A program made the position numbers and the translations under genes. A stretch of DNA of 64,000 nt from an uncultured Chloroflexia bacterium (lineage in GTDB: Bacteria > Chloroflexota > Limnocylindria > Limnocylindrales > CSP1-4), in assembly GCA_963813335.1 (NCBI GenBank), contig CAWEYL010000003.1:574372-638371 (forward strand). Reading direction: 5' to 3'. The notes beneath the pieces are model-generated. The model made no database searches. It had not been told where the DNA came from and saw only the letters and a list, made by a program, of their open reading frames with translations. Below are positions 38,840 through 64,000 of the stretch, piece after piece (the stretch's first letter is position 1; each line of letters starts with the position of its first letter).

Positions 38840-38916
38840 TGGCGGACCCGACCGGATTCGAACCGGCGATCTCCAGCGTGACAGGCTGGCATGTTGGGCC
38901 GCTACACCACGGGTCC
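38840..38916 (-). tRNA. tRNA-Asp(GTC)
   Basis: Cloverleaf GGACCCG..CGGGTCC-G-CCA, anticodon arm CCAGC-CTGTCAC-GCTGG, GGTTCGAATCC. Confidence 0.97.
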
Positions 38917-48287: not shown

Positions 48288-48306
48288 GCCCTCGATTATC
48301 ACGCGC

Positions 48307-48522
48307 TCAGCAGCCCTCGACGATCGATCCCGTGGCGACGGCCGGCTGCTCGCGCCGTCCGAGCCGCTGGATGACGGCCGCGATGCGGGCGCGGAGCGGG
48401 GCTCGTGGCGTCCCGTGGTCATGGCGCGGCTCGATGCCGCGGATCAGGCGGCCATGCTCCGCCTCGTTGAGGAGCTGGTGCATCCGCACTTCGGCGGCGA
48501 TGCCCATGTTGTAGTAGCTCAT
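48307..48522 (-). CDS. Small hypothetical protein upstream of the LuxR regulator
   Basis: AGGAGG RBS, MSYYNMGIAAEVRMHQLLNEAE... Confidence 0.6.
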   Translation of the reverse strand: MSYYNMGIAAEVRMHQLLNEAEHGRLIRGIEPRHDHGTPRAPLRARIAAVIQRLGRREQPAVATGSIVEGC

Positions 48523-48680
48523 CTGGAACCTCCTGGCCGGCATCCGTGTCGGCACCCTGAAGATTCGGGCTAACGGCGGGGGGAGCACATCACGATGACT
48601 CGTTATTTCCCGCTCCGGACACGCGTATTCGTGGTGGTGTCGGCCCCTGCCGGGCGCGACGCCGTATCATGGGCGGCCGC

Positions 48681-48756
48681 GCGCCTGTAGCTCAGTGGAT
48701 AGAGCGTTGGGTTCCGGACCCAAAGGTCGCAGGTTCGAGTCCTGTCGGGCGCGCCA
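48681..48756 (+). tRNA. tRNA-Arg(CCG)
   Basis: GCGCCTG..CGGGCGC-G-CCA, anticodon arm TTGGG-TTCCGGA-CCCAA, GGTTCGAGTCC; TATCAT -10 upstream. Confidence 0.97.
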
Positions 48757-48949
48757 TTACAGCGTGTGGCAACGCGAGTGCCAGTCCGTGCCGGTAGGCG
48801 GCCGGTGTGAGGCGGACACCGACGAACCGCGGCCCCTCCACCAGGATGCGCAGGGCGTTGTGGCGCGATCGGTTGGACCGACACGCGTGCTCGGTGCAGC
48901 GACTACCAGCGCGGCTGGTGACGACGCCGCAGACCGTGCACAGCTTCAC
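48692..48949 (-). pseudogene. Fused remnant: CxxC/CxxH phage-like N-terminus plus putative integrase C-terminus running through the tRNA
   Basis: KLCTVCG..SRCTEH joined to VGVRLTPAAYRHGLALALP.AVMARPTG. Confidence 0.55.
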
Positions 48950-49111
48950 CCGCGAATCGTCGGCGGGCTTGGTGATCTGGTCTATTCGCTCGGGGTGCTG
49001 GGCCTGCGGGGTCAGGCGTGAGCGCTACCCGCGCAGACGACAAGAGCACCCCGATGCGCCAGGGGCGACTCTTTCCGACACGATGGGCCCACGGGCCGCT
49101 ACCGTAGGCGC

Positions 49112-50083
49112 ATGAGAGCGGCAACCCACGACCGATATGGGGGGCCGGAGGTCCTCCGTGTCGAGGAAGTCGCGAAGCCCGAGCCCGCGGACGATGAGGT
49201 TCGGGTCAAAGTCCAAGCGTCCAGCGTCACGCGGACAGACACCGCGCTGCGCAGCGCCGAGTACTGGTTTGCGCGGGCGTTCACGGGCCTCCGACGGCCC
49301 AAGCGCCGGATCGCCGGAATGGAGTTCGCTGGCGTGATCGAGGCAATCGGCGCCTCGGTCACCACGTTCCACGTCGGCAAAGCCGTCTTCGGCATCAAGT
49401 CCGGTGCCAACGCCGAGTACCTGTGCGTCCAGGAGCGGGGCGTGCTAGCTCCCATGCCCGCGGACATGACCTTCGAGGAGGCGGCGGCGGTTGCGGATGG
49501 CGCGCTGACCGCGATGGCGTTCCTCCGGCAGGCGGCGCTCCAGCCGGATCAGCGCGTCCTCGTCTATGGCGCGACCGGGTCCATCGGCACGGCAGCCCTC
49601 CAGCTGGCCCGGCACCTCGGCGCCGAGGTGACAGCTGCCTGCGAGGCTGAGCACGCCGACCTCGCACGCTCGCTCGGTGCGACGACCGTGCTCGACCACC
49701 GCCTCGTCGACGTCACATCGGGAGAACGCCGGTATCACGTGATCCTCGACGCGGTTGGGAAGCTGTCGGCCTGGCGAGCCCGGCGCGCGCTCGTGCCCGC
49801 TGGGGTCTACCTCACAGCCGGCTCGGCTGGGTCACTGCTGCCGGTCCTCGTCCTGTGGCTCGTGACGCGAGGAACCGGGAGGCGGCGAGTCCGGCTCGGC
49901 GTGGCCGAGTACCGGAACGAGGACATCGTGACCTTGACCGGGCTCATCGATCGCGGCGCGTATCGGGCCGTCGTTGACCGGTCGTATCCGCTCGAGGATG
50001 TCGTCGAAGCTCACCGATACGTCGACACGCACCGCAAGATCGGCAACGTCGTCCTCGTCGTCCGTGGCGAGGCCGCGCCATGA
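49112..50083 (+). CDS. NAD(P)-dependent MDR (zinc-free quinone/alcohol) oxidoreductase
   Basis: RYGGPEVL, GATGSIG, VDRSYPL..AH..GNVV. Confidence 0.9.
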   Translation: MRAATHDRYGGPEVLRVEEVAKPEPADDEVRVKVQASSVTRTDTALRSAEYWFARAFTGLRRPKRRIAGMEFAGVIEAIGASVTTFHVGKAVFGIKSGANAEYLCVQERGVLAPMPADMTFEEAAAVADGALTAMAFLRQAALQPDQRVLVYGATGSIGTAALQLARHLGAEVTAACEAEHADLARSLGATTVLDHRLVDVTSGERRYHVILDAVGKLSAWRARRALVPAGVYLTAGSAGSLLPVLVLWLVTRGTGRRRVRLGVAEYRNEDIVTLTGLIDRGAYRAVVDRSYPLEDVVEAHRYVDTHRKIGNVVLVVRGEAAP

Positions 50084-50279
50084 CGCCCAGCTGGACACGC
50101 GTGACAGGGAAGCCCTAGTCCGGGACCGCGGCGACCCGGACACCGAGTCCGATGAGCGCCGTTCCTGTCCCTCATCGGGCCGTGCGACTGACCCGTGGCG
50201 CCGCGGACCGCGGCGCGTGACTGCGCCCTGCGCCGGGGCGAGATGCGGTGTTGTTCTCGGTTGCCTCGGTGAGCGTCAG

Positions 50280-50314
50280 GCTCGACGCAGGCACACTCCG
50301 TGCCTGCGTCGAGC
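50280..50314. terminator. 15-bp perfect hairpin between convergent genes
   Basis: GCTCGACGCAGGCAC-N5-GTGCCTGCGTCGAGC. Confidence 0.6.
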
Positions 50315-50323
50315 ACCGATGAC

Positions 50324-50821
50324 TCAGGCGTGGGCTTGCTGTTGCAGTCGGTCGGCCGTCGCGACATCTGCAGCGTCGGAGTACGTTCGGGGCCAGGTCC
50401 ATGCGGAGCGCAGGATGAAGGCCAGGATCAGCACCTCGATTCCGATGGAGAGGCCGTAGAAGGACGCCCACTCCCAGGTCGCCCCTGCCGCGTTGAACGC
50501 CGAGTAGGGGATGAGGAGCGATGCAACGACGAGGTTCGTGGCGCGGTTCACCCGGGCTGGCAGCGTCATGGAGAGCATCACCATCAGGGCCGGGATCGCC
50601 ACGGACGCGAGCATGAAGGTCAACAACGTCGGGCTGACGTCGAACTTCCAGACGAGGCCATGCAGGATGCCGTCGACGACGCCGGGCTTGTAGAGGTTGA
50701 AGAAGTCGACGTAGATGTAGAGGAACATGAAGCTGGTCCATGCGGCGGCGATCTTGGCCTGCACCGGGATCGGCGGGCCTGTCAAAGCGCTGTTGATGGG
50801 GACAGGTCGTGTCTTGTTCAT
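50324..50821 (-). CDS. DUF6326-like small membrane protein
   Basis: KIAAAW..MFLYIYVD..YKPG; AAGGAG RBS. Confidence 0.75.
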   Translation of the reverse strand: MNKTRPVPINSALTGPPIPVQAKIAAAWTSFMFLYIYVDFFNLYKPGVVDGILHGLVWKFDVSPTLLTFMLASVAIPALMVMLSMTLPARVNRATNLVVASLLIPYSAFNAAGATWEWASFYGLSIGIEVLILAFILRSAWTWPRTYSDAADVATADRLQQQAHA

Positions 50822-50917
50822 GGTTTGCTCCTTCGTTCGCTTGGTGAGCCGTCCGCCTGACAGCGGTGGCTGGTGTACGGGTGGCGCTGTGGTGGGTCGT
50901 GACACCTGGTCCGACGT

Positions 50918-51958
50918 TCAGACGGAGATGACGACCTTGCCGCGGGTGTGGCCGGCGCCGACGTAGCGGAGGGCCTCGGCCGCCTCGCTCAGCGGGTAGG
51001 TACGGTCGATGACCGGCGTGAGTTGCGCCGCCTCGAGAAGCTCGGCCAGATCAAGCAGGTCGCGGCGCTTCCTGAATGAGGTGAACGGCCGCAGGGTCTG
51101 GCGCGTGAACAGCGACCGCGCGCGCGCCTTGACGACCCGGCCCAGGGGTCCGACCCATCGGCCGCCTCGACCGCTGTTGGGGATGAGGGTGCCGGTGGGT
51201 GTGAGCGCCCGTCGGACCTCCGACAGGGACTGCGCTTCCACGTTGTCGAAGATGACGTCGTAGCGCAGCCCCGTCCGGGTGAAGTCCGTGCGCGTGTAAT
51301 CGATGACGTGGTCGGCGCCCACCGACCGGACCAGCTCCATGTTGCGGGTGCTGCATACCCCGGTCACCTCTGCCCCGAGCGCCTTGGCGATCTGCACGGC
51401 AAACGTCCCGACGCCGCCAGATGCGCCCGTGACGAGCACCGTGTGCCCCGGTTGCACGTGCGCGATGTCGCGCAGAGCCTGCAGTGCGGTGATCGCCGAG
51501 GTGGGCACCGCGGCTCCTTGCGCCATGGTCAGCCTGCCGGGTTTGCGCACCAGCTGGTCCGACGGCACGCTCGCGTACTCCGCCAGCGTCCCGGTGGTGC
51601 TCCAGCCGAACACCTCATCACCCGGTCGGAGGTCCGTGACCGCCGCGCCGACGGCTTCCACCACGCCGGCGACGTCCCTGCCCGGGATCGGGGACCGGGG
51701 CCGGCGAAGTCCGAACGCCAGCCGCACCATGTGCGGCGCGCCGGTCATGAGGAAGTAGTCGCCGGGGTGGACCGAAGCGGCGTGGACGCCGACCAGGACG
51801 TCGCCGTCCCCCACGACCGGCCGACCCACATCCGTGTACTCGAGCACCTCGGGAAGCCCGTAGCGGCGTTGCATCACAGCCTTCATCCCCGCCTCGGCCG
51901 GCAAGGCGTGGCTGACCAGGGCTTGGCCGCGGTCACTGGTTGTTCCCATTGCCTGCAT
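50918..51958 (-). CDS. NAD(P)-dependent MDR oxidoreductase
   Basis: GASGGVGTFAVQIAK, PVIDRTYPL, RGKVVI. Confidence 0.92.
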   Translation of the reverse strand: MQAMGTTSDRGQALVSHALPAEAGMKAVMQRRYGLPEVLEYTDVGRPVVGDGDVLVGVHAASVHPGDYFLMTGAPHMVRLAFGLRRPRSPIPGRDVAGVVEAVGAAVTDLRPGDEVFGWSTTGTLAEYASVPSDQLVRKPGRLTMAQGAAVPTSAITALQALRDIAHVQPGHTVLVTGASGGVGTFAVQIAKALGAEVTGVCSTRNMELVRSVGADHVIDYTRTDFTRTGLRYDVIFDNVEAQSLSEVRRALTPTGTLIPNSGRGGRWVGPLGRVVKARARSLFTRQTLRPFTSFRKRRDLLDLAELLEAAQLTPVIDRTYPLSEAAEALRYVGAGHTRGKVVISV

Positions 51959-51986
51959 TGATCTCTCCTCGTGTGCTGCGTTGGTG

Positions 51987-52012
51987 CTTATGGCATAAGC
52001 TTATGGCATAAG
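51987..52012. promoter_or_regulatory. Two abutting palindromic TetR operators
   Basis: CTTATG-G-CATAAG twice between divergent genes. Confidence 0.75.
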
Positions 52013-52046
52013 GTATCATGGCGTCAAGGGCATTCGAGGAGAACAC

Positions 52047-52712
52047 GTGATGGCACGCCGCACGACTCAGAAGCGAGCGCCGCTCACCCGGGACCGCGTG
52101 CTGCGCGCGGCGCTGGAGCTCGCCGACGAGGGCGACACCGCGGCGCTGACGATGCAGCGGATCGGGCAGCGGCTCGGCGTGGAGGCGATGTCGCTCTACC
52201 GACACGTTCGCAACAAGGACGACATCCTCGACGGGATCGTCGACCTCGTCTTCGCCGAGATCGAGCTGCCGGCAGATCGCTCGAACTGGCGAACGGTGCT
52301 CCGTGCCCAAGCGATCTCGACCCGCGCGGCCCTGCGCCGGCATCCTTGGGCGATCACGCTCATGGAATCGCGATTGACGCCCGGCCCGGCCAACTTCCGC
52401 ACACACGAGGACACCATCACCGTCCTGCTCGACGCCGGGTGCTCGGCGGTCATGGCGGTACATGCCTACAACCTTCTCGACAGCTACGTGCTCGGGTTCG
52501 CGCTGCAGGAGGTCAACTTCCCCTTCAGCAACGCCGAGGAGCTGGCAGCCATGAGCGAGGAGGTGCTCGCCAACCTGCAGGCGGACGAGTACCCGAACTC
52601 TGCGCGCGTCGCGAGGGAGCTCCTCACGTCCGGCTTCGACTACGCCGACGAGTTCGAGTTTGGGCTCGACCTCATCCTCGACGCCCTCGGGCCGGTCCTG
52701 CCGGGAGCCTGA
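52047..52712 (+). CDS. TetR family regulator (TetR_C type)
   Basis: LTMQRIGQRLGVEAMSLYRHVRNK, FEFGLDLILD. Confidence 0.93.
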   Translation: MMARRTTQKRAPLTRDRVLRAALELADEGDTAALTMQRIGQRLGVEAMSLYRHVRNKDDILDGIVDLVFAEIELPADRSNWRTVLRAQAISTRAALRRHPWAITLMESRLTPGPANFRTHEDTITVLLDAGCSAVMAVHAYNLLDSYVLGFALQEVNFPFSNAEELAAMSEEVLANLQADEYPNSARVARELLTSGFDYADEFEFGLDLILDALGPVLPGA

Positions 52713-52845
52713 TCGCCGGGCGACCGGTCAAGCGGGCCGGGCCCACGGCGGGTCCCAGCCTGCGCCGACGGACGGCTACTACCTGCTGGCACGAGTGATC
52801 ACTGCGGCAATCGTTGCGGTAGCCCAGCGCTCGGCCGGTGCGAAT

Positions 52846-52900
52846 TCAGCTGGGCTCGAGGCTCGCCACCACCAGCCAGCCCTCGGCCCGGCCGTGGTGA
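52846..52900 (-). pseudogene. C-terminal remnant of the island HTH gene
   Basis: GRAEGWLVVASLEPS* matches GRAEGWLFVAELEPS in the 55089-55412 ORF. Confidence 0.65.
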
Positions 52901-52904
52901 CCGC

Positions 52905-53279
52905 CTACGGATACGAGGTCCAGGCCAACCAGGCCGTGGCAGCGTTCCATCCCAGCCCGACGACGATGAGGAACTTGTCGTACAGCCCCGAGTACGTCGG
53001 CAGGCCGATGAGGTTGAAGGCGAAGAGACCGACCGCGGCGATGACGCTGACCCAGCGAAGCGTCTGCCCGGACAACGTCACGGACAGGACGACCATGACG
53101 ATCGGAATCAGCATCAGGACGGCGACGAACATCAGCGCCGCCGGGACCATCTCCTGCTTGAGGCCGCCGAACTGGCCCGGGGTGGCGTCGCCGCTCCAGA
53201 ACCGCAAGACGTCCCCCAGCAGGTAGGTGAGCATCAGGGCTACCCACAGCGCTGACAGCTTGATCTGCACCTCTGGCAT
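52905..53279 (-). CDS. DUF6326-like small membrane protein (second copy)
   Basis: KLSALWVALMLTYLLGD..IPIVMVVLS. Confidence 0.7.
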   Translation of the reverse strand: MPEVQIKLSALWVALMLTYLLGDVLRFWSGDATPGQFGGLKQEMVPAALMFVAVLMLIPIVMVVLSVTLSGQTLRWVSVIAAVGLFAFNLIGLPTYSGLYDKFLIVVGLGWNAATAWLAWTSYP

Positions 53280-53404
53280 CGATCGGCTCCGTTCTCGATC
53301 AAGTGAGCTTTGGGGTTGAAGGCCATGCCTCGCGTCGATCCACCGGCTCGGTGGGCGCTGAACGGATCTGCCCGTCGGCATCGGCTCGTTCATGCGGCCA
53401 CCCC

Positions 53405-54379
53405 TCAGGCCACTGCCCGATCGATCGCGATGACCACGGTCCCTCGCGCATGTCCTGCTGCGACACGCCCGATCGCCTTGGGCGCCTCTCGCAGTGGCCA
53501 GGTCCCGGCGATCACCGGTTTGACCTTCCCCGCCTCGACGAGGTCCTTGAGGACCAGCAGGTCAGCTCGGTTCTCGAACTTGGGGGACGGTTTGCCCTGC
53601 TGGCGCACAAACATCGACACGATCGCGAGCCGGATCACGCGACCGATCGCGCCGCCGGCGTGTCCGCCCCCGTTCGAGAGCAGCTTCCCGTTGGAGGCGA
53701 GGGCTCGCCTCGTCGCCGACATGGAGTGGTCCCCCACGTTGTCGAGGATGAGGTCGTAGCGCCGTCCGCCCTTCCTGAAGTCCTCCTTCGTGTAGTCGAT
53801 GACGTGGTCGGCGCCGAGCGAGCGGACCAGCTCCACGTTCTTCGTGCTGCATACGCCGGTCACCTCGGCACCGAACGCCTTGGCGATCTGAACGGCGAAC
53901 GTGCCCACGCCTCCGGATGCCCCGTTGATGAGGACCTTCAACCCGGGCTGGAGGTGTCCGTCATCGCGCAGGAGCTGGAGTGCGGTCGTCGCGGACACGC
54001 CGACGGCGGCCGCCTGGTCGAACGTGAGATTGGCTGGCTTGAGCGCGAAGTGGTCCTCGCTCGCTGACGCGTACTCAGCGAAGGCGCCCATGCACCACCC
54101 GAACACGTCGTCACCGGGGCGTAGTCCGTTCACGTCCTTGCCAACCGCTTCGACCGTCCCCGCGATGTCCGTCCCTGGAACACGGTTCCTCGGCTTGCGG
54201 AGTCCGGTCGCCAGCCGCATGAGGAATGGCGAGCCCGTCATGACGATCACGTCACCGACATGGATCGACGCGGCATGGACACGGACCAGGACTTCGCCGT
54301 CGCCGATCTCGGGACGATCGATGTCCCGTGACTCCAGGACCTCGGCCGCGCCGTACCGGTCCTGAACGATGGCTTGCAT
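53405..54379 (-). CDS. NAD(P)-dependent MDR oxidoreductase (paralog of 50918-51958)
   Basis: GASGGVGTFAVQIAK, GADHVIDYT; AGGAG RBS. Confidence 0.92.
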   Translation of the reverse strand: MQAIVQDRYGAAEVLESRDIDRPEIGDGEVLVRVHAASIHVGDVIVMTGSPFLMRLATGLRKPRNRVPGTDIAGTVEAVGKDVNGLRPGDDVFGWCMGAFAEYASASEDHFALKPANLTFDQAAAVGVSATTALQLLRDDGHLQPGLKVLINGASGGVGTFAVQIAKAFGAEVTGVCSTKNVELVRSLGADHVIDYTKEDFRKGGRRYDLILDNVGDHSMSATRRALASNGKLLSNGGGHAGGAIGRVIRLAIVSMFVRQQGKPSPKFENRADLLVLKDLVEAGKVKPVIAGTWPLREAPKAIGRVAAGHARGTVVIAIDRAVA

Positions 54380-54397
54380 GGATGGAGTCTCCTGTGG

Positions 54398-54441
54398 CTT
54401 TACGATGTAAAGTTGTCGCATCGGACTTTACGCTGTAAAGT
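54398..54441. promoter_or_regulatory. Two palindromic TetR operators
   Basis: CTTTAC-GAT-GTAAAG (54398-54412) and ACTTTAC-GCT-GTAAAGT (54425-54441). Confidence 0.75.
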
Positions 54442-54495
54442 GGGTGAATGTCAACCCCGGAATCGTGCGGTTGACCGAGTCCCGGAGGAGGGCCT

Positions 54496-55218
54496 ATGAC
54501 GCACACGAGCAAGCGAGCACAGCGACGCGCCCCGCTGAGCCGGGACCTCGTACTCGACACCGCGGTCAAGCTCGCCGATCGGGGTGGGCTCGCGTCCCTG
54601 AGCATGCGGAACCTCGGCCAGGAGCTCGGGGTCGAGGCGATGGCCCTCTACTACCACTTCGCCAACAAGGACGAGGTGATCGACGGGATGGTCGATCTCG
54701 TCTTCAGCGAGATCGATCTGCCTGCCAGCGGAGCCGACTGGAAGACCGCCATGCGTCAACGGGCGATCTCGCTCCGAGACGCGTTGCTGCGCCACCGCTG
54801 GGCAATCGGCCTGATGGAGTCGCGGCGAAAGCCAGGGCCGGCGAACCTGCGCCACCACGACGCGGTGATCGGCACGCTGCGGTCGGCAGGCCTCGACATG
54901 CCGACGATCGCGCACGCGTACTCGCTCTTGGACAGCTACATCTACGGTTTCGCCCTGTTTCTGGTGAACCTCCCATTCGATCCCTCGGAGGAGGTCGCGG
55001 AGTTGGGCCAGGTCACGCTCCGGGCGTTCCCCCTCGACGCCTACCCCAACCTCGTCGCGTACATCTCAGCGATGAGGCCCGGCTACGACTACGGGGACGA
55101 ATTCGAGTACGGTCTCGACCTGGTACTTGACGGCCTCGGGAGCGCAGCGGGATCTTCACGATCTGAGCTCGGCTCCAGCTCTGCGACGAACAGCCACCCC
55201 TCCGCCCGCCCTCGGTAG
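54496..55218 (+). CDS. TetR family regulator (paralog of 52047-52712)
   Basis: LSMRNLGQELGVEAMALYYHFANK, FEYGLDLVLD. Confidence 0.92.
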   Translation: MTHTSKRAQRRAPLSRDLVLDTAVKLADRGGLASLSMRNLGQELGVEAMALYYHFANKDEVIDGMVDLVFSEIDLPASGADWKTAMRQRAISLRDALLRHRWAIGLMESRRKPGPANLRHHDAVIGTLRSAGLDMPTIAHAYSLLDSYIYGFALFLVNLPFDPSEEVAELGQVTLRAFPLDAYPNLVAYISAMRPGYDYGDEFEYGLDLVLDGLGSAAGSSRSELGSSSATNSHPSARPR

Positions 55219-55412
55219 ATCAGCTGCTCGGTACTGAGACCAGATCGTGCTCGCAGGTCCGCGAGATGCCGCTTCGCTGTACTAGGCCGGATGCCAACCC
55301 GCGCTGCGGCGTCGGACACGGATCCGCCGACCTCGACGAAGGCGGCGAGGACGTCGACCTGACGGGCGGTCCGAGTCGTAAGAGGCTCGCCGCGTAGGCG
55401 TCCGTCCCTCAT
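55089..55412 (-). CDS. Small HTH DNA-binding protein of the integrated element
   Basis: TARQVDVL..AAARVGIRPSTAKRHLADLR; ATG overlaps the TGA of the putative integrase tail. Confidence 0.65.
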   Translation of the reverse strand: MRDGRLRGEPLTTRTARQVDVLAAFVEVGGSVSDAAARVGIRPSTAKRHLADLRARSGLSTEQLIYRGRAEGWLFVAELEPSSDREDPAALPRPSSTRSRPYSNSSP

Positions 55413-55578
55413 GCACGCAACCCGGCCGCGGCCAGCCACTCATCGCGGCCCTCGATCGGGATGCGGTAGGTGTAGGTTGAAATCGCGCGCCCAACACCTG
55501 TCGGGCGCGCCATTACAGCCTCTTCCGGCAGCGCCAGCACCAATCCGTTGGCATAGGCCGCCGCGGTCAGCCGGATCA
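55409..55578 (-). pseudogene. Putative integrase C-terminal remnant spanning the att core
   Basis: IRLTAAAYANGLVLALPEEAVMARPTGVGRAISTYTYRIPIEGRDEWL...*. Confidence 0.6.
55497..55519 (+). repeat. att-like direct repeat of the tRNA-Arg 3' end
   Basis: CCTGTCGGGCGCGCCATTACAGC identical to 48741-48763. Confidence 0.9.
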
Positions 55579-56208
55579 CGCGCGAGAAGGGCGTGGGTCG
55601 TCCACCGCGTTGACGAGGCGCAGCATGAGATCGACGGCCTCCGCGTCGGAGAGCCCGTTGTCGGTCAACGATCGCCACGTCGGGTACGCCATCGCATGAC
55701 CGATGGCGACCATCCTGAGGCGCTGGGTCGAGCCGTCGCCGGACCATCCACGAGCGAGAACCGAGAACAGCTCCGTCATGTGCTCGAGGAACGGTTCCAC
55801 GCCGCCGACCCGGATCATCGTCGGCAGATCCCGGATGACGTTCCCGACGACCCGGGCGTTCGCTCGGTAGTACGGGTAGAGCTCGCCGAGAGCGTGGCGG
55901 AGACGGGCAGGCGGATCGTCGATCGCGGCCCAGCCTTCCCCGGTGGGGATGTGCGTGACCTGGAGACCGTGCTCCGTGCAGGCGCGGAAGAGCGAGCCCA
56001 GGTCGGGAAAGTGGTGGTAGACGGTGTGGCGCTGGACGCCGGCCAGCTCGGCGACCGCGCTGATCGACGTCTGCGCCGGCCCGACCGTGCTGTGCAGCTC
56101 GAAGGCCGCCTTGGTGATGCGCTGGCGCGTTGCCTCCCATTGCACGCGCCGTTCTCGCATCTGGTATGCGCGTTTTCTCGTTGGCCTCTTGGGTACAGTC
56201 ATGTGCAC
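55576..56208 (-). CDS. TetR family regulator
   Basis: TSISAVAELAGVQRHTVYHHFP. Confidence 0.9.
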   Translation of the reverse strand: MHMTVPKRPTRKRAYQMRERRVQWEATRQRITKAAFELHSTVGPAQTSISAVAELAGVQRHTVYHHFPDLGSLFRACTEHGLQVTHIPTGEGWAAIDDPPARLRHALGELYPYYRANARVVGNVIRDLPTMIRVGGVEPFLEHMTELFSVLARGWSGDGSTQRLRMVAIGHAMAYPTWRSLTDNGLSDAEAVDLMLRLVNAVDDPRPSRA

Positions 56209-56254
56209 CGAAAGTATTGACGAACCCGCCCCGGATGGCTAGTCTCAATTTAGA

Positions 56255-56270
56255 TGCACAGTATTGTGCA
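56255..56270. promoter_or_regulatory. Palindromic operator candidate
   Basis: TGCACA-GTAT-TGTGCA between the divergent TetR and hydrolase genes. Confidence 0.6.
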
Positions 56271-56290
56271 CATAGCCCTGAGGCGGCAAG

Positions 56291-57376
56291 GTGCCAACGC
56301 TGAGGACTGCCCACTTCGTGATGGCACTCGTCGCCACGGTCGCGACGACCACCGCGCTCGGCGCCTGCAGTGGTCCTGCGGTGCCATTGCCACCGACATT
56401 CGCACCGACCGGTCCTGTCCGGACAAGCATCTCGACGTCGGGAGAGTCGACCGGCTCCAGCGAGCCAGCTTCGACCTCGGGATCACCCGAGACGACAAGC
56501 GCATTCGAGGCAGGCGCGAGGACGCTGCGGACGATCGCCGGGGCGAGCGCGGCAAGTTCGCACCTCACCATCGGCCGCGCGCTATCGGCCAACACCGTCT
56601 ACACGAGCCACGCGGCCGCGTACACGAGTGACGGTCTGACGATCTCGGCGGTCCTGCATCAGCCCGTGGCACCCGGTCCGCACCCGGGCGTGGTGCTCGT
56701 GCACGGCTTTGTCGACCCGGCGAACTACACCACCGGCGCGGAGTTGCAGCGCGAGCAGGATCATCTGGCGCGTGCCGGGTACGTCGTGCTCTACACGGAC
56801 CTGCGCGGGCTTGGGGGATCGGACCCAGCACCCAGTGGCCCACCGGATCTGGAGATGGGCGCGACGGACGATGTCATCAACGCCGTCAGCGCCCTGGCGG
56901 CCTCAGGTCTACCAGGCTTGGACGCAAAGAGGATCGGACTGCTCGGTCATTCGCTCGGCGGTCTGCTCGTCCTCAACGTACTCGTGGCCAAGCCGGGTCT
57001 CGTCGATGCTGTCGCGGCTTTCGCCCCCTCGGGCACGGATCGCTTCGAGGATGCCCAGCTGTACCTGGCCCATGACGACCCGATCTACCTGGCTCTCGTC
57101 GCCGCCCACGGCACGCCGACCACCGATCCCGAATACTGGGCGGACGTTTCACCGCGCACGTTCGTCGACCGAGTCACAGACCCGCTGCTGATCGTGCAAG
57201 GCGACGCCGACGTCGACGTCCCTCCTGCCGGGACGAAGGACACGGTCGCGATCTGGCAAAAGGCCGGTAAGGACGTCGAGTTCGTCACCCTCGAGGGTGA
57301 GGATCACGTGTTCCGAGCGCGCTGGAACGAAGCGATGGAAGCGGTGATCGCCTTCTTTGCCAAGCATCTCAAGTAG
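56291..57376 (+). CDS. Alpha/beta hydrolase (S9 peptidase-like) lipoprotein
   Basis: LGAC lipobox, GHSLGG, QGDADVDV, EDH. Confidence 0.85.
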   Translation: MPTLRTAHFVMALVATVATTTALGACSGPAVPLPPTFAPTGPVRTSISTSGESTGSSEPASTSGSPETTSAFEAGARTLRTIAGASAASSHLTIGRALSANTVYTSHAAAYTSDGLTISAVLHQPVAPGPHPGVVLVHGFVDPANYTTGAELQREQDHLARAGYVVLYTDLRGLGGSDPAPSGPPDLEMGATDDVINAVSALAASGLPGLDAKRIGLLGHSLGGLLVLNVLVAKPGLVDAVAAFAPSGTDRFEDAQLYLAHDDPIYLALVAAHGTPTTDPEYWADVSPRTFVDRVTDPLLIVQGDADVDVPPAGTKDTVAIWQKAGKDVEFVTLEGEDHVFRARWNEAMEAVIAFFAKHLK

Positions 57377-57477
57377 CGCGATCCGATCCGACCCGTGGTT
57401 CGCCCGTCGTGACCAGGGATACAGCCTTCAGCCCAGTCGCGCGGCCACGATTCGGCCATCGCGGCAGCCGCGCAGCC

Positions 57478-57507
57478 TCGCAGGTTCGAGTCCTGTCGGG
57501 CGCGCCA
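57478..57507 (+). repeat. att-like 30-bp duplicate of the tRNA-Arg 3' end
   Basis: TCGCAGGTTCGAGTCCTGTCGGGCGCGCCA identical to 48727-48756. Confidence 0.92.
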
Positions 57508-57616
57508 GAACGCATGTTCTATATCCGTTCCCAACGGCAACCGTCCTCGCCCCGTCGGGCTGACCTACGACATCGAGCCTCGCTCAGGGCCTCGGGGTGT
57601 CGCTCGAGTTCAGGGG

Positions 57617-57736
57617 CGGTTGCGCGATGAGGTCGATCTCGGGCAACTCGCCATCGAGATGAAAGGTGCGGTCGAGCGCACCGTCGAGCCAGTGACCGTC
57701 TCGGTTTGGCTGCGGCATCGAGCGTTCTGGGAATGA
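57617..57736 (+). pseudogene. C-terminal remnant of a membrane protein family
   Basis: RLRDEVDL.......VERTVEP..VSVWLR motif with no upstream coding body. Confidence 0.5.
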
Positions 57737-57988
57737 CTATCATCGGACGCCGTCCGGAGTCGAGTTCGAGACTCGACATCAGACCGAGACGGTCGCTGGC
57801 GCGGTCTATTCGCCTGCGGTCCTACGCCCGGGAGGCCATGCTCGTTAGCCACCCATGCGGCAGCCGCGGCGCGAGCTACGGAAATGGCGTGGCGCCAGGC
57901 CGGATTCCGCGAGTTCGTTTGTCATCGCCGTTGATGCTAGGTCGATGGTTCCGACGAAGGGTGTCGCGAGTTCGGGCCGATGCCCCGG

Positions 57989-58489
57989 TCAGAGAGCGCA
58001 GTTCTTGGAGACCCATACCGCGGTCGTCCCGATGTCCTTGGCGTTTCCGGCCATGCCATCGGTGATCGCTTTCTGTAGGGCAGCTTCGTCGACGGCCCCG
58101 CCGGCAGCGGCCTTCCCGATGTTGTCCATGACGTCGGCATAGGTGTTGGCGGCCTGTGCGATCTCTGCCGGTGCGTACTTCCGCATGTCAGCCGCAGCGG
58201 CCTGGAACTGTGCGCCCATGGTCGCGATATCGCCTGTCGGGTTATCGTTGAGCGCCTGGAGCTCCTTGAACGCGCCGCAGAAGTCGGTGGCGGTGCCTCC
58301 GGCGACCGGCGCCGAGGTCGATCCCTCGCTCGGTGCCGTCGATGCTTCGATCGACGAAGTCGGTTCCGATGCTGGCTGCGATGCCGTCGCCGCGGGTGGC
58401 CCACCGGATGGCCCTGAGCTCGCCGTCGACGAGCAGCCAGCCAGGGTAACCACGACCAGAAGCGAGAGCTGAGCGATGAGGCGCTTCAT
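57989..58489 (-). CDS. Lipoprotein, Ser/Thr linker plus small disulfide helical domain
   Basis: MKRLI...LAGC lipobox; DFC...NC; AAGGAG RBS. Confidence 0.8.
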   Translation of the reverse strand: MKRLIAQLSLLVVVTLAGCSSTASSGPSGGPPAATASQPASEPTSSIEASTAPSEGSTSAPVAGGTATDFCGAFKELQALNDNPTGDIATMGAQFQAAAADMRKYAPAEIAQAANTYADVMDNIGKAAAGGAVDEAALQKAITDGMAGNAKDIGTTAVWVSKNCAL

Positions 58490-58771
58490 GCCGAGTCTCC
58501 TTCGGGAATGCGGGACGGACTTGCCCCCGTGCGCCAGCCCGCCGCTGAGGCTGCAAGTATGGGCGTTGGCGGGCTTCCTGTCCGATCGTCGGTCGGGCAG
58601 GCTCGCGCGCCCTCCCCGACCAGTTTGCCCGGTGCGATGCCGCACCGCGGCCGATGGTCTTGGTCCTTGCATCGGCCCGCTGGACGGCCACACTGGTCCG
58701 ACGCGGCCGCCCTGGCCCAAACGACGCCGATCTCCCGTCCGCCACCGTCGCCGCGCAAGGAGGCCCGTCGA

Positions 58772-59344
58772 ATGCGCTTGATCCGTCCACCATGGCGCGG
58801 CCCGCGGGCCGTCTTCGTCACCCTCGTCGGAGTCGTCGCACTGTTCGTGGCCGCTGTCGCACCGGTGACCGTCGGAGCGGCAGCCACCGCACAGCCCGCT
58901 GCGCCTGTTGCGGCCGCGCCCCTCGCGCTCCCGACGACCACGGTGCACGGCGGGGGCTTCCAGCTCCACAGTGTCATGGATCCGAACTTCTGCGCCGAGG
59001 TCGGTGGCGGCGCGGCCGACCTGCGATCCGTGACCCTGGAGCCATGCGTCGCAGCCTCCGCACAGCGCTGGACATTCTCGTGGCTGGCGACCGGCCTCAA
59101 CCAGATGATCGAGACCCAGGGGATGTGCGTTGACGTGAGCGGCAGAAAGCCTGGCGACGGCGTCGCGGTCGCGGTCACCTACTGCAAGAACACCAAAGCG
59201 GAGAAGCTGACCTTCAGCCTGACCGGGCAGATCGAGTTCGCAAAGGGCTGCCTCTCGTTCCCCCGGAACGCCGCGGGCGCCGCGGTCTTCCTCGAGGCGT
59301 GCGATAGCATGAACAACAGGCAGTTCTGGAAGCTCTCCCAATAG
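58772..59344 (+). CDS. Secreted ricin-type beta-trefoil lectin
   Basis: Signal peptide; CxxV..C..QRW, CVDV, CL..C..QFW repeats; AAGGAGG RBS. Confidence 0.85.
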   Translation: MRLIRPPWRGPRAVFVTLVGVVALFVAAVAPVTVGAAATAQPAAPVAAAPLALPTTTVHGGGFQLHSVMDPNFCAEVGGGAADLRSVTLEPCVAASAQRWTFSWLATGLNQMIETQGMCVDVSGRKPGDGVAVAVTYCKNTKAEKLTFSLTGQIEFAKGCLSFPRNAAGAAVFLEACDSMNNRQFWKLSQ

Positions 59345-59536
59345 CGGTGGCCCGCGGATCGTGACGAATGTCGTCACGGACGGTCCCGGCACGACTCCGG
59401 CGGGCCGCTGCCAACCTTTTCGGTGGCGGGCCCCCGTGTCACGCGAAAGGGGGAATCGATGCGTGGACTGGCAAGAATCGTCGCCGACCGCCGTCCTTTC
59501 GGTGCCGTGAGCCCGCGACCAAGCTGGCCAAGCGAC

Positions 59537-60103
59537 ATGGAGATCCCTCAGCTGAATCGTCCCCGCGCCACCAAGACCTTCCTTCGGAGCACATTTCTCG
59601 TGCTCGGTCTCCTCGTGCCCGTCGGGTGCTCCGGCGCGGCCACCGGAACCCCCACGAATACCGATCCCGGCAGCGTGTCGGGGCCTGCGACCGTGAATCC
59701 CCAGGCGACCCCACCTGCCGGGACATCCCCACAGGCAGGCGCCCCCCTGCCTGCCGACCCGTGCGCGCCGACCGCCGCCGCCATCAAGTCGGTCGGCTGG
59801 TCGGTCATCAAGGCTGTGGCCGGCCCTGGCCCCGGCGGACCCAACACGCAATGCACCTTCCAGGCCGACCGCGGTGGGAACAGCTCCGACAACGGCTGGG
59901 TGGCGTACATTCCCGCGTCGCAGATGTCGGGCGAGTACCACGAGCCAGAAGCGATCACAGGCGTCGGGGTCGAGGCGTTCCGGGGTTCGCCCCAGAGCGG
60001 CGAGATCCTGGCCACAGGCGCCAGTCCTGGGTTCCGGCTGTTCGTGGCGAGCGGCGACGAGGACGCCCTCAAGTTCGCGCAGGCGCTCGTGAGCGGGAAT
60101 TGA
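59537..60103 (+). CDS. Putative lipoprotein
   Basis: Hydrophobic segment ending PVGC, Pro/Thr linker, DPC...QCTF. Confidence 0.65.
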   Translation: MEIPQLNRPRATKTFLRSTFLVLGLLVPVGCSGAATGTPTNTDPGSVSGPATVNPQATPPAGTSPQAGAPLPADPCAPTAAAIKSVGWSVIKAVAGPGPGGPNTQCTFQADRGGNSSDNGWVAYIPASQMSGEYHEPEAITGVGVEAFRGSPQSGEILATGASPGFRLFVASGDEDALKFAQALVSGN

Positions 60104-60336
60104 GCGTGGGCGGCAGGAACCAGGGGGGTTCCTCTCCTCGCAGGTGTCAGCCGCATGACGACCCCTCATGCCCGGCCGGAGCTGGCACATGGCGGCCGCA
60201 TCGATCGTCGCGATCGTCGCCACGCTGATCGCGGGTCTGCCGCCCGCGCTGGCGGACGGTGACGCGGGCCGATGACGCACAACCCATTCGCGGAAGGCGG
60301 CCATTCCCTGGGCCTCGGGCCGGCGAGGCAACCGGC

Positions 60337-63300
60337 CTAGGCGCAGGAGCCGCCGGCGAGCATCCCGGCCATCATCAGGAGCACGGCGACGATCGACCGA
60401 CCGGCCAGGCCCCCGATGTCGGCCGCCGCCAGACCGGCGGCGTAGGACGCGGCGTTAAAGATGTCCTGCTTGATGTTCGGGGCGGCGGTGAAGGAGCCGA
60501 GGGCCGCAGTTCCGGCGCCATAGACGTCCGCCCCGACGCACGCGTACTGCGGGATCACGCCCGGCGTCGCGATGCACAACGTCGAGATCATCGCGATCGA
60601 CGTCGTGATGAAGGCTGCGAGATCGTCGGCACCCTCCGGCTGGAGGCACTTGCTGTAATCCTTGCCGGCCCCGCGACCGTCGGCGCCGACCGCGGTCAAC
60701 GATCCCGTCGCAGGATCGACGAGCCACGCGGCCACGACATCGCCGGACGTCGGCACAAGCCGGTGGAAGTTCCAGTACTTGGTCGCGAGTGGCGAGAGAC
60801 TCGCCTTGCGGTCCGCCGCGAGGGCCGTCGAATCGATGGTCGCCAACGCCGGGATCAGGGTGAGGGCGAGCCCGTCGAGCTGATCGGCGGCACTCGCGGG
60901 GAAGAGCAGGGATTCGCGAACGCTCGCGCCGACCGATCGGCGCGCCGCGGCATCGAACGCGGCCATCCCGTCCGGGCCTACGCCGACCCAATCGTCGAGA
61001 CTCGGGACGATATCGGAGAGGTGGACGAGGTCCGTCGCCGTGACCGCTTCGGTCAGGATCGAGACTGAGAGCCCGACCGGTGTCGCGTCGATCGCGGGCT
61101 CGCGGCCGGCGACCGGTTCCGACATCGCCGCGAGGATGCCCGGGAACCGCCGCCAGCCCGTGGAGGCGGCGGCGATCGCCGCCGGGCCATCGGCCCATAC
61201 CTTGTCGAGCGGTTCGAATGTCAGCGCCGCCCCGATCAGGTCGTCGAGGAGTCGTGCGGTCGTGGTCCCGGGTTCGAAGCGGATCGTCTGGATCGCATCG
61301 AGCGCGGCGGTCGCCTCGGCGATCGCGGTGGCGTCGGCCGTCTCGTTCGGGACGTCACGGTCCGACGCCGGGACCCCGCCGAGTCGCCGGCGCATGACGC
61401 GGTCGCCGACGGTGACGGTGACGTAGACACCCGCGACGCCGGACGGCGCCGAACGGTCCGCAGGGGCGGGGACGTCGTACGCCAGCGTCGCCGGGCTCGC
61501 GGTCGACCCAGCGATGCCCACGCTCACGTCCCTCGACGTCGGGCCATCGGTCGGGGCCACGTACCGCAGCCGGTAGCCCGTCGAGGCGGCGGTCGCGACC
61601 CGGTCGGCGACGAACCCGCTGAGTCGCTCGGCGAGGTCGCTCGCCTTCGGGTCGAGGCGTTGGCCATGCGTGTCGGCCAGGATCGCCTCGGTCGCCGCCT
61701 TGTCAACCGACCCGACGGGGAGCACGGCGATAGGAACCCCCGCGCCACGGACCTGCCGGCGCAGGCCCGGGATCTGCTCCGGGAAGTCGCTCGCGACGTT
61801 GTCGCTGACGAGGATCACCGCCGAGGCCCCGGACGCCGGCACGGCCTGTCCGAGCGTGGTCCAGATGTCGGACGTCGAAGCCGCGCCGCCTGCGAATGCC
61901 GCCGTGAGGGCCGCCGCCTCAGGGGCCGCCCACCCGTCGTCGCTGGACGCCCCGCCGACCCCGATCACCTGGGTGGTGAACGGATGCCCGACGGCCGCTG
62001 TCGTGAGCGCGGTCGCGATCTTCGATTCGAAGGCGGCCCGGGCCTTCGCCGAGGGCCAGGAGCCGATCACGCTGCTGCTCGAGTCGTAGATGACGAGGAT
62101 CCGGATCGACGTCGGGGCGCTGTTGCCGATGAGTGTCACGGTTCGGGGCTGCCCGTCATCGGTAACTTCGAACGCCGATGCGGGCAGGCCGTCGATCGGC
62201 CGTCCATCGACGTCTCGCACGCTGACGGCGAGATCGACCGTCGGGAAGGTCGCGATCGACGCGGCCGCGGCGATCGTGGTCACCGTCGCGACGGTGGCTC
62301 CAGATGGCGGTGCCGCGAGGATCGGTCCAAGCGGGCCATCGAGTGCTCCGGATCCGTCCGACGCGGGCGTGACGAGCCCGCCGGCCAGGCTGATCGCGGT
62401 GCCGCCGACGATCTGGATCGTGCCGTCATCCGCATCGATCGCCTCGAGCCGCAGGACCGGCTGGCGCACGGGCACCTCGCTCCGCCGTCGCTGGAGCGTC
62501 TCGAGCGGGCTCCCCGGGACCCCGAACGCGAGCGTGAGATGACGCGCGGCCAGCTGGTCCGCCGGCCACGTCCCTCGCAGCACCTCGTGGAGCACCGTTC
62601 GATCAACTGTCGCGCCACGCGGCGGGTTAAACGCGACCTGGACACTTACGGTCACCTGTGGCATCACGGCCGCCGAGGCCGACACCATGCCGTTGGGCGC
62701 CGTGGTCAGGAGCGCTGTCCCGCCGACGGCAGTCGCCCATCGGGCGTCGGCGCCGTCGCCGAACGCCACGACCGGGATGCGGTCGGGCAGACCCGGGGCG
62801 ATCGTCTGAGCCGTCCGGAGCTCCGGCGGGAGAGCGGCGAGGACGGCCGAAGCGGCTCGGGCCGCCGCGGTCGGGGCGTCGTCCGGACCGTCGGTCAACC
62901 TCGGATGCCCGGCGTCGACGGTGTCCCACAGGGCCGCGAGTGCGCCGAGGTCTGGAGTGAAGGCCACCGGCTTGGCACCGCCGAACGCGAAGTCCGCCGG
63001 TCGATCCATCGAAAGCACCGTGCCGGTCACGCCCATGGTCCCGAGGAGCTCGACGAGGAGGTCGGCGCGCTCCCGCAGCGTGCCGCGACCCGAGGCGAGT
63101 GTCCCGCGCGCGCCCCAGCGCGCCTCTGTCAGCGGGTCGCCGGATCTCTGGCTCCCTGGCAGGATGGCGATGTGATCGCGGACGAATGACACGACCGCCG
63201 CAGGGTCGCCGGTCGCGACCGCCGCCGCGGCAAGCGTCGCGAGGTGATCCGGGCTCGCCCGGACGATGGCCCGGAGTCGTCGAAGGGCATCGAATGCGTC

Positions 63301-63471
63301 GGCCGGTGGCCCGGTCTGCGCCGGGCTCGCAGTCGCCGTCGGCGCGAATGTGCCGTTCACGGGTGGCTCCGGCGGGGCGGGCAGACAGCCGGCTGCGACG
63401 GCGCACCCGACGAGGGCAAGGAACGCCCGCCGATCGATCCGCGGACCGAACCAGATGCCGTCGATAGCCAT
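60337..63471 (-). CDS. Large Tat-type lipoprotein with VWA-like domain and hydrophobic Cys/Gly-rich C-terminus
   Basis: DRRAFL..AAGC signal; YDSSSS MIDAS-like motif; GL...FEVTDDG pre-VWA segment. Confidence 0.7.
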   Translation of the reverse strand: MAIDGIWFGPRIDRRAFLALVGCAVAAGCLPAPPEPPVNGTFAPTATASPAQTGPPADAFDALRRLRAIVRASPDHLATLAAAAVATGDPAAVVSFVRDHIAILPGSQRSGDPLTEARWGARGTLASGRGTLRERADLLVELLGTMGVTGTVLSMDRPADFAFGGAKPVAFTPDLGALAALWDTVDAGHPRLTDGPDDAPTAAARAASAVLAALPPELRTAQTIAPGLPDRIPVVAFGDGADARWATAVGGTALLTTAPNGMVSASAAVMPQVTVSVQVAFNPPRGATVDRTVLHEVLRGTWPADQLAARHLTLAFGVPGSPLETLQRRRSEVPVRQPVLRLEAIDADDGTIQIVGGTAISLAGGLVTPASDGSGALDGPLGPILAAPPSGATVATVTTIAAAASIATFPTVDLAVSVRDVDGRPIDGLPASAFEVTDDGQPRTVTLIGNSAPTSIRILVIYDSSSSVIGSWPSAKARAAFESKIATALTTAAVGHPFTTQVIGVGGASSDDGWAAPEAAALTAAFAGGAASTSDIWTTLGQAVPASGASAVILVSDNVASDFPEQIPGLRRQVRGAGVPIAVLPVGSVDKAATEAILADTHGQRLDPKASDLAERLSGFVADRVATAASTGYRLRYVAPTDGPTSRDVSVGIAGSTASPATLAYDVPAPADRSAPSGVAGVYVTVTVGDRVMRRRLGGVPASDRDVPNETADATAIAEATAALDAIQTIRFEPGTTTARLLDDLIGAALTFEPLDKVWADGPAAIAAASTGWRRFPGILAAMSEPVAGREPAIDATPVGLSVSILTEAVTATDLVHLSDIVPSLDDWVGVGPDGMAAFDAAARRSVGASVRESLLFPASAADQLDGLALTLIPALATIDSTALAADRKASLSPLATKYWNFHRLVPTSGDVVAAWLVDPATGSLTAVGADGRGAGKDYSKCLQPEGADDLAAFITTSIAMISTLCIATPGVIPQYACVGADVYGAGTAALGSFTAAPNIKQDIFNAASYAAGLAAADIGGLAGRSIVAVLLMMAGMLAGGSCA

Positions 63472-63572
63472 CGGATCGATGGTAGCGCCCGGAAGCGTTC
63501 GCCTCCGATCCGATCCTGTCAATGATCCACTCCGATGCCCGGGCGTGATCAGCCGCAAATCGCCTCCATACG

Positions 63573-63845
63573 CTATCCGATCAGCGACGCGCCTCTTCGG
63601 CTCCCTCGATCGGAATCACCTTTGAATCCCGAGTGGGTACCCCCACGTCTGACTCCTGTCGGGCGCGCCACGGCAACCCTTTCGGGCAGCGCCAGCGCCA
63701 AACCGTGCGCGTGGGCCGCCGCGGTCAGCCAGACACCGACGATTTCGGGGACAGCGACGGTGATCCGCTCGTAGATGGCGTGCATCAGGTCTGCCTTCTC
63801 CTCCGGTGCGTCTGCGGTCTGGAAGGACTCGCCCAGAGTGCGCTG
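63573..63845 (-). pseudogene. Putative integrase C-terminal remnant spanning the att core
   Basis: EEKADLMHAIYERITVAVPEIVGVWLTAAAHAHGLALALPERVAVARPTG; homologous to the remnants at 48.8 and 55.5 kb. Confidence 0.6.
63654..63670 (+). repeat. att-like direct repeat of the tRNA-Arg 3' end
   Basis: TCCTGTCGGGCGCGCCA identical to 48740-48756. Confidence 0.85.
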
Positions 63846-64000
63846 CCTTTCAGCTGTCGCCCGCAGATGCTTTCGAGGTGGCCGCCGAGCAGGTCGACCC
63901 GATTCCAGTTCTTCGGCCCCCGCCGCGAGTCTTGGAGCGCCGCGCCTCCTCCACGCGGGCCAGAGCTTGTCCGAGACGACACCCCAAACCCTGCAGCGGG

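Follow-up and report, generated by a model that had tools for sequence, protein, structure and literature searches.

We analysed a window of 64,000 nucleotides from an uncultured Chloroflexia bacterium (G000:C3:574372-638371; genomes, contigs and loci carry our own G, C and L labels). The window very probably contains a tandem array of cassettes of a large serine recombinase (LSR) at the 3' end of a tRNA-Arg(CCG) gene, with an integrase open reading frame (ORF) that spans attP, the attachment (att) site of the element. The anatomy of the array was observed directly, the family membership of the recombinase is established, and the two alternative C-terminal tails that the gene can carry are both conserved as coding sequence. 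The locus itself is a fossil array of small cargo cassettes, and all three of its recombinase copies are dead remnants. The contig terminates at the window end (64000), and the source assembly comprises 7 contigs with 72% G+C and is 81% complete. Comparisons were made against 201 genomes of the same bacterial family, using ARAGORN for tRNA calls and Pfam for domain calls.

Att cores and recombinase remnants beside a tRNA-Arg gene

The tRNA-Arg(CCG) gene lies at 48681-48756 on the plus strand, and its last 16 nt (48741-48756) constitute the first copy of the att core, CCTGTCGGGCGCGCCA. This 3' end of the tRNA was found at 48741, 55497, 57492 and 63655, giving four copies in the window where 100 shuffles of the sequence led us to expect none, while a fifth copy was observed in the same genome at position 6032 of contig C5, where it belongs to a P-core-motif junction. 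Translation of the minus strand beside three of the four window cores gave the same peptide, continued by antisense tRNA at one junction and by alternative sequence elsewhere, which confirmed what the first-pass annotation had read from the letters.

The junction at 48.7 kb is attL-type, running from the tRNA through the core into an integrase 3' end. The LSR remnant found here (remnant 1, 48692-48949, minus strand) is an 85-aa frame that retains part of the zinc ribbon as well as the C-terminus with ARPTG, followed by 15 aa of antisense tRNA; it reads ...RLTPAAYRHGLALALPHAVMARPTG, then LEPATFGSGTQRSIH, and its stop codon falls inside the tRNA D-loop. By tblastn it was 92% identical over 52 aa to residues 449-500 of the LSR at locus L047. 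There is no room for a full recombinase gene at this position because an alcohol dehydrogenase (ADH) gene begins at 49112.

The junction at 55.5 kb, between cassettes 1 and 2, has the order P-core-P' and is attP-like, with core copy 2 at 55497-55512. Around its central CC, 18 of 22 positions form an inverted repeat, whereas each of the three remaining cores of the window gave 9-10 of 22, and the site thus has the form of an attP of ~50 bp with an imperfect dyad around a presumed 2-bp crossover. Remnant 2 (55409-55575, minus strand) consists of the last ~55 codons of an LSR gene running across this core, and reads ...IRLTAAAYANGLVLALPEEAVMARPTG, then the attP-type tail VGRAISTYTYRIPIEGRDEWLAAAGLRA and a stop, so that a tandem junction does rebuild a tail of the attP type, as had been proposed. 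The codon-position GC switches frame at ~55575, the upstream frame being that of a TetR gene.

Core copy 3 (57430-57526, plus strand, with the core at 57492-57507) was assigned as attR-like from repeat family D3, sequence and translation. A further 14 nt identical to the tRNA T-arm precede this core, making 30 nt of tRNA 3' end altogether, and the minus strand encodes a degenerate tail, ARPTGLEPARLRGCRDGRIVAARLG (...RDGRIVAARLG and a stop). The core is followed by a short motif, gaacgcATGTTCTATatcc, written gaacgcATGTTCTAT at 57.5 kb. At the last junction, at 63.6 kb, a decayed P arm occupies 63573-63654; core copy 4 (63655-63670) comes next, and then a recombinase stub. Translation of the minus strand over 63573-63998 gave ...KADLMHAIYERITVAVPEIVGVWLTAAAHAHGLALALPERVAVARPTG, and the IPIEG motif that the first-pass annotation placed after a frameshift was present in a shifted frame as VIPIEGAEEARR and a stop. 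Remnant 3 (63655-64000, minus strand; from translation, frame plot and tblastn) is cut off by the contig end and matches residues 423-486 and 276-306 of a full-length LSR by tblastn, which indicates an internal deletion of ~117 codons in addition to a frameshift.

None of the three peptide copies is part of an intact gene, and all are short pseudogene remnants. The three stubs shared 83, 72 and 69% of their residues with LSRs from other genomes and 54-64% with each other (among the pairs listed), so they represent separate arrivals; they derive from three different LSR subtypes.

Full-length relatives are large serine recombinases

A 69-aa query from 63.6 kb matched 113 of the 201 family genomes, among them 61 of the 99 rated high-quality, with 35 of 49 genera represented, and by our count ~30 of the matches listed sit in open frames of at least 480 aa. 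Nineteen full-length genes of ~500 aa aligned end to end. The first-pass annotation had taken the peptide for an integrase C-terminus, possibly of a large serine recombinase, and had named as its refutation full-length homologues that are not recombinases or ORFs that stop before the core; the homologues proved to be LSRs by Pfam, motifs and fold, and their ORFs cross the core. Pfam Resolvase (PF00239) was found in the full-length relatives above cutoff, with E-values from 8e-12 to 3e-10, in a catalytic part that the window copies lack. The catalytic motif ARW[IV]RES[TS]xGQ, with its serine, was conserved in the 19 full-length sequences, and the zinc ligands Cys286, Cys288, His308 and Cys314 were near-invariant.

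An AlphaFold2 model of a 510-aa member had a mean predicted local distance difference test score (pLDDT) of 91.1, with long helices across residues 326-441. Foldseek matched this model at E ~1e-13 to 9dxd, 9dxh, Bxb1 integrase (9iu2) and PhiC31 integrase (9tep). The fold matches by VIA included 9dxh_A (Z 16.4), Bxb1 9iu2_A (Z 14.6) and the C-terminal domains of 4kis_B (model residues 147-462, Z 13.2), and the catalytic domain matched TP901-1 integrase 3bvp_A with Z 14.9 and a root-mean-square deviation of 3.1. The relatives therefore combine a resolvase-type catalytic domain with, by fold, Recombinase and zinc-ribbon domains with an inserted coiled coil. Curated NCBIfam models gave only faint matches to CcrB (NF047343, 27.8 bits against a cutoff of 900), CcrA (NF047344, 21.7 against 700) and XisF, which places the proteins outside the Ccr families.

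In a representative library we found 2127 relatives at E <=1e-3 and 215 at E <=1e-30. No tblastn match to a full-length member was obtained in phage and plasmid collections at E 1e-5, and the elements therefore cannot be called phage- or plasmid-borne.

The tRNA target was recurrent. A tRNA was found by ARAGORN at 11 of 14 loci scanned, and all were tRNA-Arg (8 CCG, 2 TCT, 1 TCG). Junctions of the attL, attR and attP types were seen in many genomes, and on these comparisons members of the family probably catalyse attP x attB integration. Similar arrays were common, e.g. five cores in 18 kb in G123 and four cores in 9 kb in G086. An intact unit of 8.3 kb, carrying an LSR, regulators and redox genes, lies between the tRNA and a P-core-P' junction in G151; a scan of 10 of its ORFs gave no match to any phage, conjugation or tyrosine-integrase family. 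Directly upstream of the recombinase in this element (L062:2125-2436, minus strand), and at L008 and L041/L061, lies an ORF of 103 aa that matches no Pfam family. As a candidate for a conserved directionality factor, it was found among the loci in only 3 genomes (G151, G196, G131; ~90% identity) and was absent from the genome of the window.

Ordinary tRNA islands moved by a tyrosine integrase, with the serine recombinase stubs as passengers beside the att site, would share the classic signature seen here, an identity block of 16-30 nt that regenerates the tRNA 3' end. We consider this explanation highly improbable. Among 91 listed tRNA flanks, sorted by eye, ~72 run into an antisense recombinase C-terminus, with the 3' end of the LSR lying directly against the tRNA and sharing one orientation and reading frame; 6 lead into the short ATGTTCTAT motif, and in 13 other sequence follows (the list holds T-arm-plus-core flanks with G or C at position +25, a part of all flanks). 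No Phage_integrase domain was found in the scanned window ORFs or in the 8.3-kb element of G151. The attP also shows the dyad symmetry typical of LSRs, and in the subfamily directed at tRNA-Arg(TCT) its P half-site changes in step with the acceptor stem. Serine recombinases with tRNA genes as their targets have been described (PMC3218068).

Two C-terminal tails and a proposed mechanism

Integrated ORFs read ...LALPEKVxxARPTG and then continue into antisense tRNA, as FEPATFGSGGRRSI[HR] or LEPATFGSGTQRSIH followed by a stop. This stop is a TGA derived from the tRNA D-loop, and it comes after 15 antisense residues; in some subfamilies the T-arm is translated in a different frame (RQDSNLRP, RLELTA). 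In an AlphaFold2 model of the integrated form, residues 479-500 had pLDDT <50 and no secondary structure. The integrase ORF thus crosses attP and integration alters its C-terminus, as in the system of phage Mx8.

To the left of many cores, in the P arm, the same frame continues ARPTG with VGRALATYEIPIEGRDEWLAAARRLA and a stop. In eight distinct P arms of equal length, 7 columns varied at codon position 1, 5 at position 2 and 14 at position 3, and past the stop codon 60 of 60 columns varied. The third-position variation, together with the divergence after the stop, indicates that it is the peptide that is constrained, and only as far as the stop. Matches to the window's tail peptide were found in 86 of the 201 family genomes. 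The subfamily targeting tRNA-Arg(TCT), which has a different core and frame, retains RIPIAGRGEWEAAALKSA and TPISGKREWEAAARQSA, each with a stop, and its P arm mirrors the acceptor strand of its own tRNA. Ten full-length library representatives, with 28-52% identity to P0012, end by eye in the same kind of motif, e.g. ...IPIVGRREWLRASRSA. A crude regex sort of 150 representative tails left 105 unclassed for want of a C-terminal anchor, and among the 45 anchored sequences it gave 8 attP-type and 18 antisense-tRNA tails. By sequence comparison, the attP-type tail behaves as selected coding sequence.

A reading in which the repeated peptide is non-coding, with recombinase-binding arms conserved at the DNA level and similar translations arising by chance, would suit the window copies, which are short and lie outside any intact gene. 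It is nevertheless exceedingly improbable, since the same sequence forms the C-terminus of the 19 aligned full-length ORFs, substitutions are mostly at third positions, conservation ends exactly at the stop codon, and the G+C content at third codon positions (GC3) supports the frame.

In the AlphaFold2 model of the attP form, the tail residues 491-510 had pLDDT of 95 and 91, with a strand at 490-493 and a helix at 499-509. This modelling used an alignment of 39 rows that we chose ourselves, and the integrated-form model was built from the same sequence set. The alignment with solved integrases extends no further than model residue 464-469, which marks the tail as something this clade has added. 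Full-length forms of the attP type were seen only at L059 and among library representatives lacking known context. The recombinase at L059/L066 (G009:C49, same genus) is full-length, belongs to a sister subtype and terminates in ...RIPIVGRSAWLRSAKTA and a stop. The L059 3' end carries a perfect 10-nt inverted repeat with ~30 nt spacing, and its 17.5-kb contig has no tRNA and shows no overlap between its two ends. Three large frames (G018, G009:C26) considered as a full-length type-1 gene with a VGRA... tail were rejected as spurious high-GC frames without the catalytic motif.

Our proposed mechanism for the array is as follows. The recombinase belongs to an LSR clade of ~500 aa, common in this high-GC family, whose gene lies at one end of the element and reads outward, with its last ~30 codons spanning attP. 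The attP is ~46 bp and dyad-symmetric, with a right half equal to the 3' strand of the tRNA acceptor stem, TGTCGGGCGCGCCA, a left half that is its inverted repeat, and the centre CC; the palindrome reads ARPTG-VGRA because the left half mirrors the right half. When the element is excised, or where two units meet in tandem, the ORF would run through the left half and end ...IPIEGRDEWLAAARRLA with a stop, a tail predicted to be ordered. Integration would join the gene body to the tRNA and replace the last ~26 residues by 15 antisense residues predicted to be disordered; the right half of attP would restore the tRNA acceptor strand, and the tail codons would stay behind at the far junction. Repeated integration beside the regenerated tRNA, together with deletions, would then produce an array in which the recombinase copies have decayed to 3' stubs. 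The crossover would fall at the central CC; sequence comparison confines it no more closely than to the identity block of 16 nt. The succession of these events, like whatever the tail swap may do to activity, is given here as we infer it.

Several observations weigh against this account. A 16-bp identity between attB and attP is what one would more typically expect of tyrosine integrases, and Pfam Recombinase (PF07508) scored below threshold in the full-length relatives (17.5-18.2 bits against a cutoff of 21.1). The tail's high pLDDT is a predicted value, obtained with the 39-row alignment of our own choosing. The segment at 57508-63654 misfits a simple cassette, its left end being the short ATGTTCTAT motif without an integrase stub. 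No intact LSR of the clade was found by tblastn in the assembled genome, which is 81% complete, and nothing in the genome of the window can be active unless a recombinase is supplied in trans. Public metagenome contigs over 47000-64000 gave no direct evidence of excision or integration, and only short, untrustworthy joints; the contigs were short, and stretches that they left uncovered carry no information. These include joints from 48962-48969 to 57791-57798 (skipping ~8.83 kb) in three runs, which do not lie at att cores and were not used; their sides are <=35 nt with likeness set to 92, and they possibly come from other organisms.

The first-pass annotation went further and suggested that the tail reports whether the element is integrated or excised. 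Its interpretation is supported at the level of sequence, where the junctions, the recombinase and the two tails agree with it; conservation and structure predictions are what suggest that the tail may also report the state functionally. The tail could act as a state sensor if only the excised or tandem element encoded the folded IPIEGRDEWL tail, which would make the enzyme integration-competent, while the integrated, tail-less isoform would differ in directionality or activity. Such control would operate without or beside a separate recombination directionality factor, and the same recombinase may mobilise recombinase-less cassettes and capture flanking host DNA. We regard this proposal as tentative, with a rather small chance of being correct. 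There is a modest chance, still on the unlikely side, that the swap is real but functionally neutral, the tail being kept for slight stabilisation or for some reason unrelated to state. Intact-looking full-length genes with the antisense-tRNA tail are common, so that the protein presumably still serves excision, and the reach of the solved LSRs, to model residue 464-469, indicates that the catalytic and DNA-binding core needs no tail. Neutrality fits poorly with the third-position variation and with a stop position that is constant across genera and tRNA-Arg-target subfamilies, and also with a tail predicted to be ordered at pLDDT >90; this degree of conservation suggests that the tail matters in the state where it is expressed.

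Cargo of the array and comparison with known systems

The units of 6.7 and 2.0 kb carry recombinase 3' stubs only, and with four cores in tandem they resemble cis-mobilisable elements in being att-flanked tandem units without their own recombinase. The cargo of cassette 1 (49112-55218, both strands; from Pfam, repeat families D1 and D2, and GC3) includes three zinc-type ADHs by Pfam (49112-50083, plus; 50918-51958, minus; 53405-54421, minus), two TetR regulators (52047-52712 and 54496-55218, both plus) and an ORF with a weak Pfam match to DUF6326 (52905-53393, minus). A diverged ADH/TetR tandem duplication of ~2.5 kb was also observed in this cassette, with 73% identity (51171-51470/53667-53966 and 52074-52273/54526-54725). 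Cassette 2 (55576-57376) carries, by Pfam, a TetR-family regulator (55576-56208, minus) and an alpha/beta hydrolase of the peptidase S9 type (56291-57376, plus).

Segment 3 (57508-63654) has the ATGTTCTAT motif as its left boundary, and its right boundary is the decayed P arm at 63573-63654, with IPIEG in the shifted frame. Two simpler assignments of this segment were rejected, that of native chromosome since the right end is a decayed P arm, and that of a normal cassette since the left end has no integrase stub. It contains a ricin-lectin-domain ORF by Pfam (58508-59344, plus) and a 1073-aa ORF (60337-63558, minus) with no Pfam family and a coding-like GC3 of 0.86, whose N-terminus resembles by eye a twin-arginine or lipoprotein signal. 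An overlapping frame of 780 aa (57989-60331) appears to be non-coding.

An AT-rich motif, g.ac..ATGTTCTATtTcc, was observed directly after the core at 57508-57526, at G000 C5:6048-6066 and at loci L027, L068 and L062. The ATGTTCTAT motif follows the tRNA or core in several genera, the likeness ending after ~19 nt, and P-arm-core-motif junctions were also found in G123 and G151. The ATGTTCTATtTcc motif may represent either the native flank of attB or an arm from a second type of unit. Our guess is the native flank; such segments would then be host DNA, taken up when an attR recombined with a junction downstream of it. Synteny with genome G143, of the same genus, gave only two short matches to other contigs, so that the native B' flank is placed only tentatively. 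A reading of G143 as an empty site is not secure.

Outside the array, a MalT-like regulator of 1057 aa with AAA_16/TPR/LuxR architecture (45249-48422, minus) was observed immediately upstream of the tRNA. The same architecture, apparently frameshifted, is cargo of the 8.3-kb element of G151 (L062:2986-5740). A tRNA-Asp(GTC) lies 10 kb upstream (38840-38916, minus).

Serine integrases are prized tools of genome engineering, being simple and directional, and their directionality is thought to need a separate factor. A widespread clade with a C-terminus rewritten by integration would be a new coupling of recombinase form to element state. The clade offers a set of enzymes with a defined, conserved tRNA-Arg target, and lengthens the short list of serine recombinases known to use tRNA genes. 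It also shows that small cassettes with metabolic and regulatory genes, in arrays like those of the staphylococcal cassette chromosome (SCC), are a route of gene flux in this bacterial family. The practical meaning for the window is modest because its locus is a fossil record.

In SCC, an LSR of the Ccr type moves small cargo cassettes into the 3' end of a conserved gene, and tandem arrays include units without a recombinase. The present clade differs in its match to CcrB (27.8 bits against 900) and in its target, which is a tRNA and not rlmH.

The accounts cited below were accessible in part, and our statements on them extend to that text. Serine recombinases targeting tRNA genes are rare, the examples being integrative and conjugative elements of actinomycetes (AICEs), namely those of Mycobacterium in tRNA-Leu, and phage phiRSM in tRNA-Ser (PMC3218068); as here, a serine recombinase integrates into the tRNA 3' end. 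The attP of phiRSM sits between ORFs (PMC3816273), and its enzyme is small and resolvase-like, with no overlap of attP and the recombinase ORF mentioned in the accessible text. Accretion of elements at tRNA-Arg has been described for Streptomyces AICEs, which were detected by tyrosine or serine integrases (PMC9513070).

In Mx8 and SSV the integrase gene extends across attP, and integration of Mx8 alters the C-terminus of IntP (PMC4383910, PMC6070905). The likeness to our elements lies in an attP within the integrase coding sequence and, in Mx8, in a new 3' end given by integration. Both of those enzymes are tyrosine recombinases, whereas the enzyme here is a serine recombinase, an LSR, with a dyad-symmetric attP and an antisense tRNA-Arg replacement tail. 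The SSV gene, moreover, is split and not re-tailed.

In the integration-dependent immunity of mycobacteriophages, attP lies inside the repressor gene and the free and integrated products differ at the C-terminus (PMC8092301). There the system comprises a repressor gene, a tyrosine integrase and an ssrA-like degradation tag on the viral tail, whereas here the gene is that of the recombinase itself and the tail of the free form is predicted to be folded and not tag-like. We found no published description of an attP inside a serine integrase gene in a literature search that covered few subscription journals. Set beside these systems, a tRNA-Arg-specific LSR whose own tail is rewritten by integration is apparently an undescribed variant.

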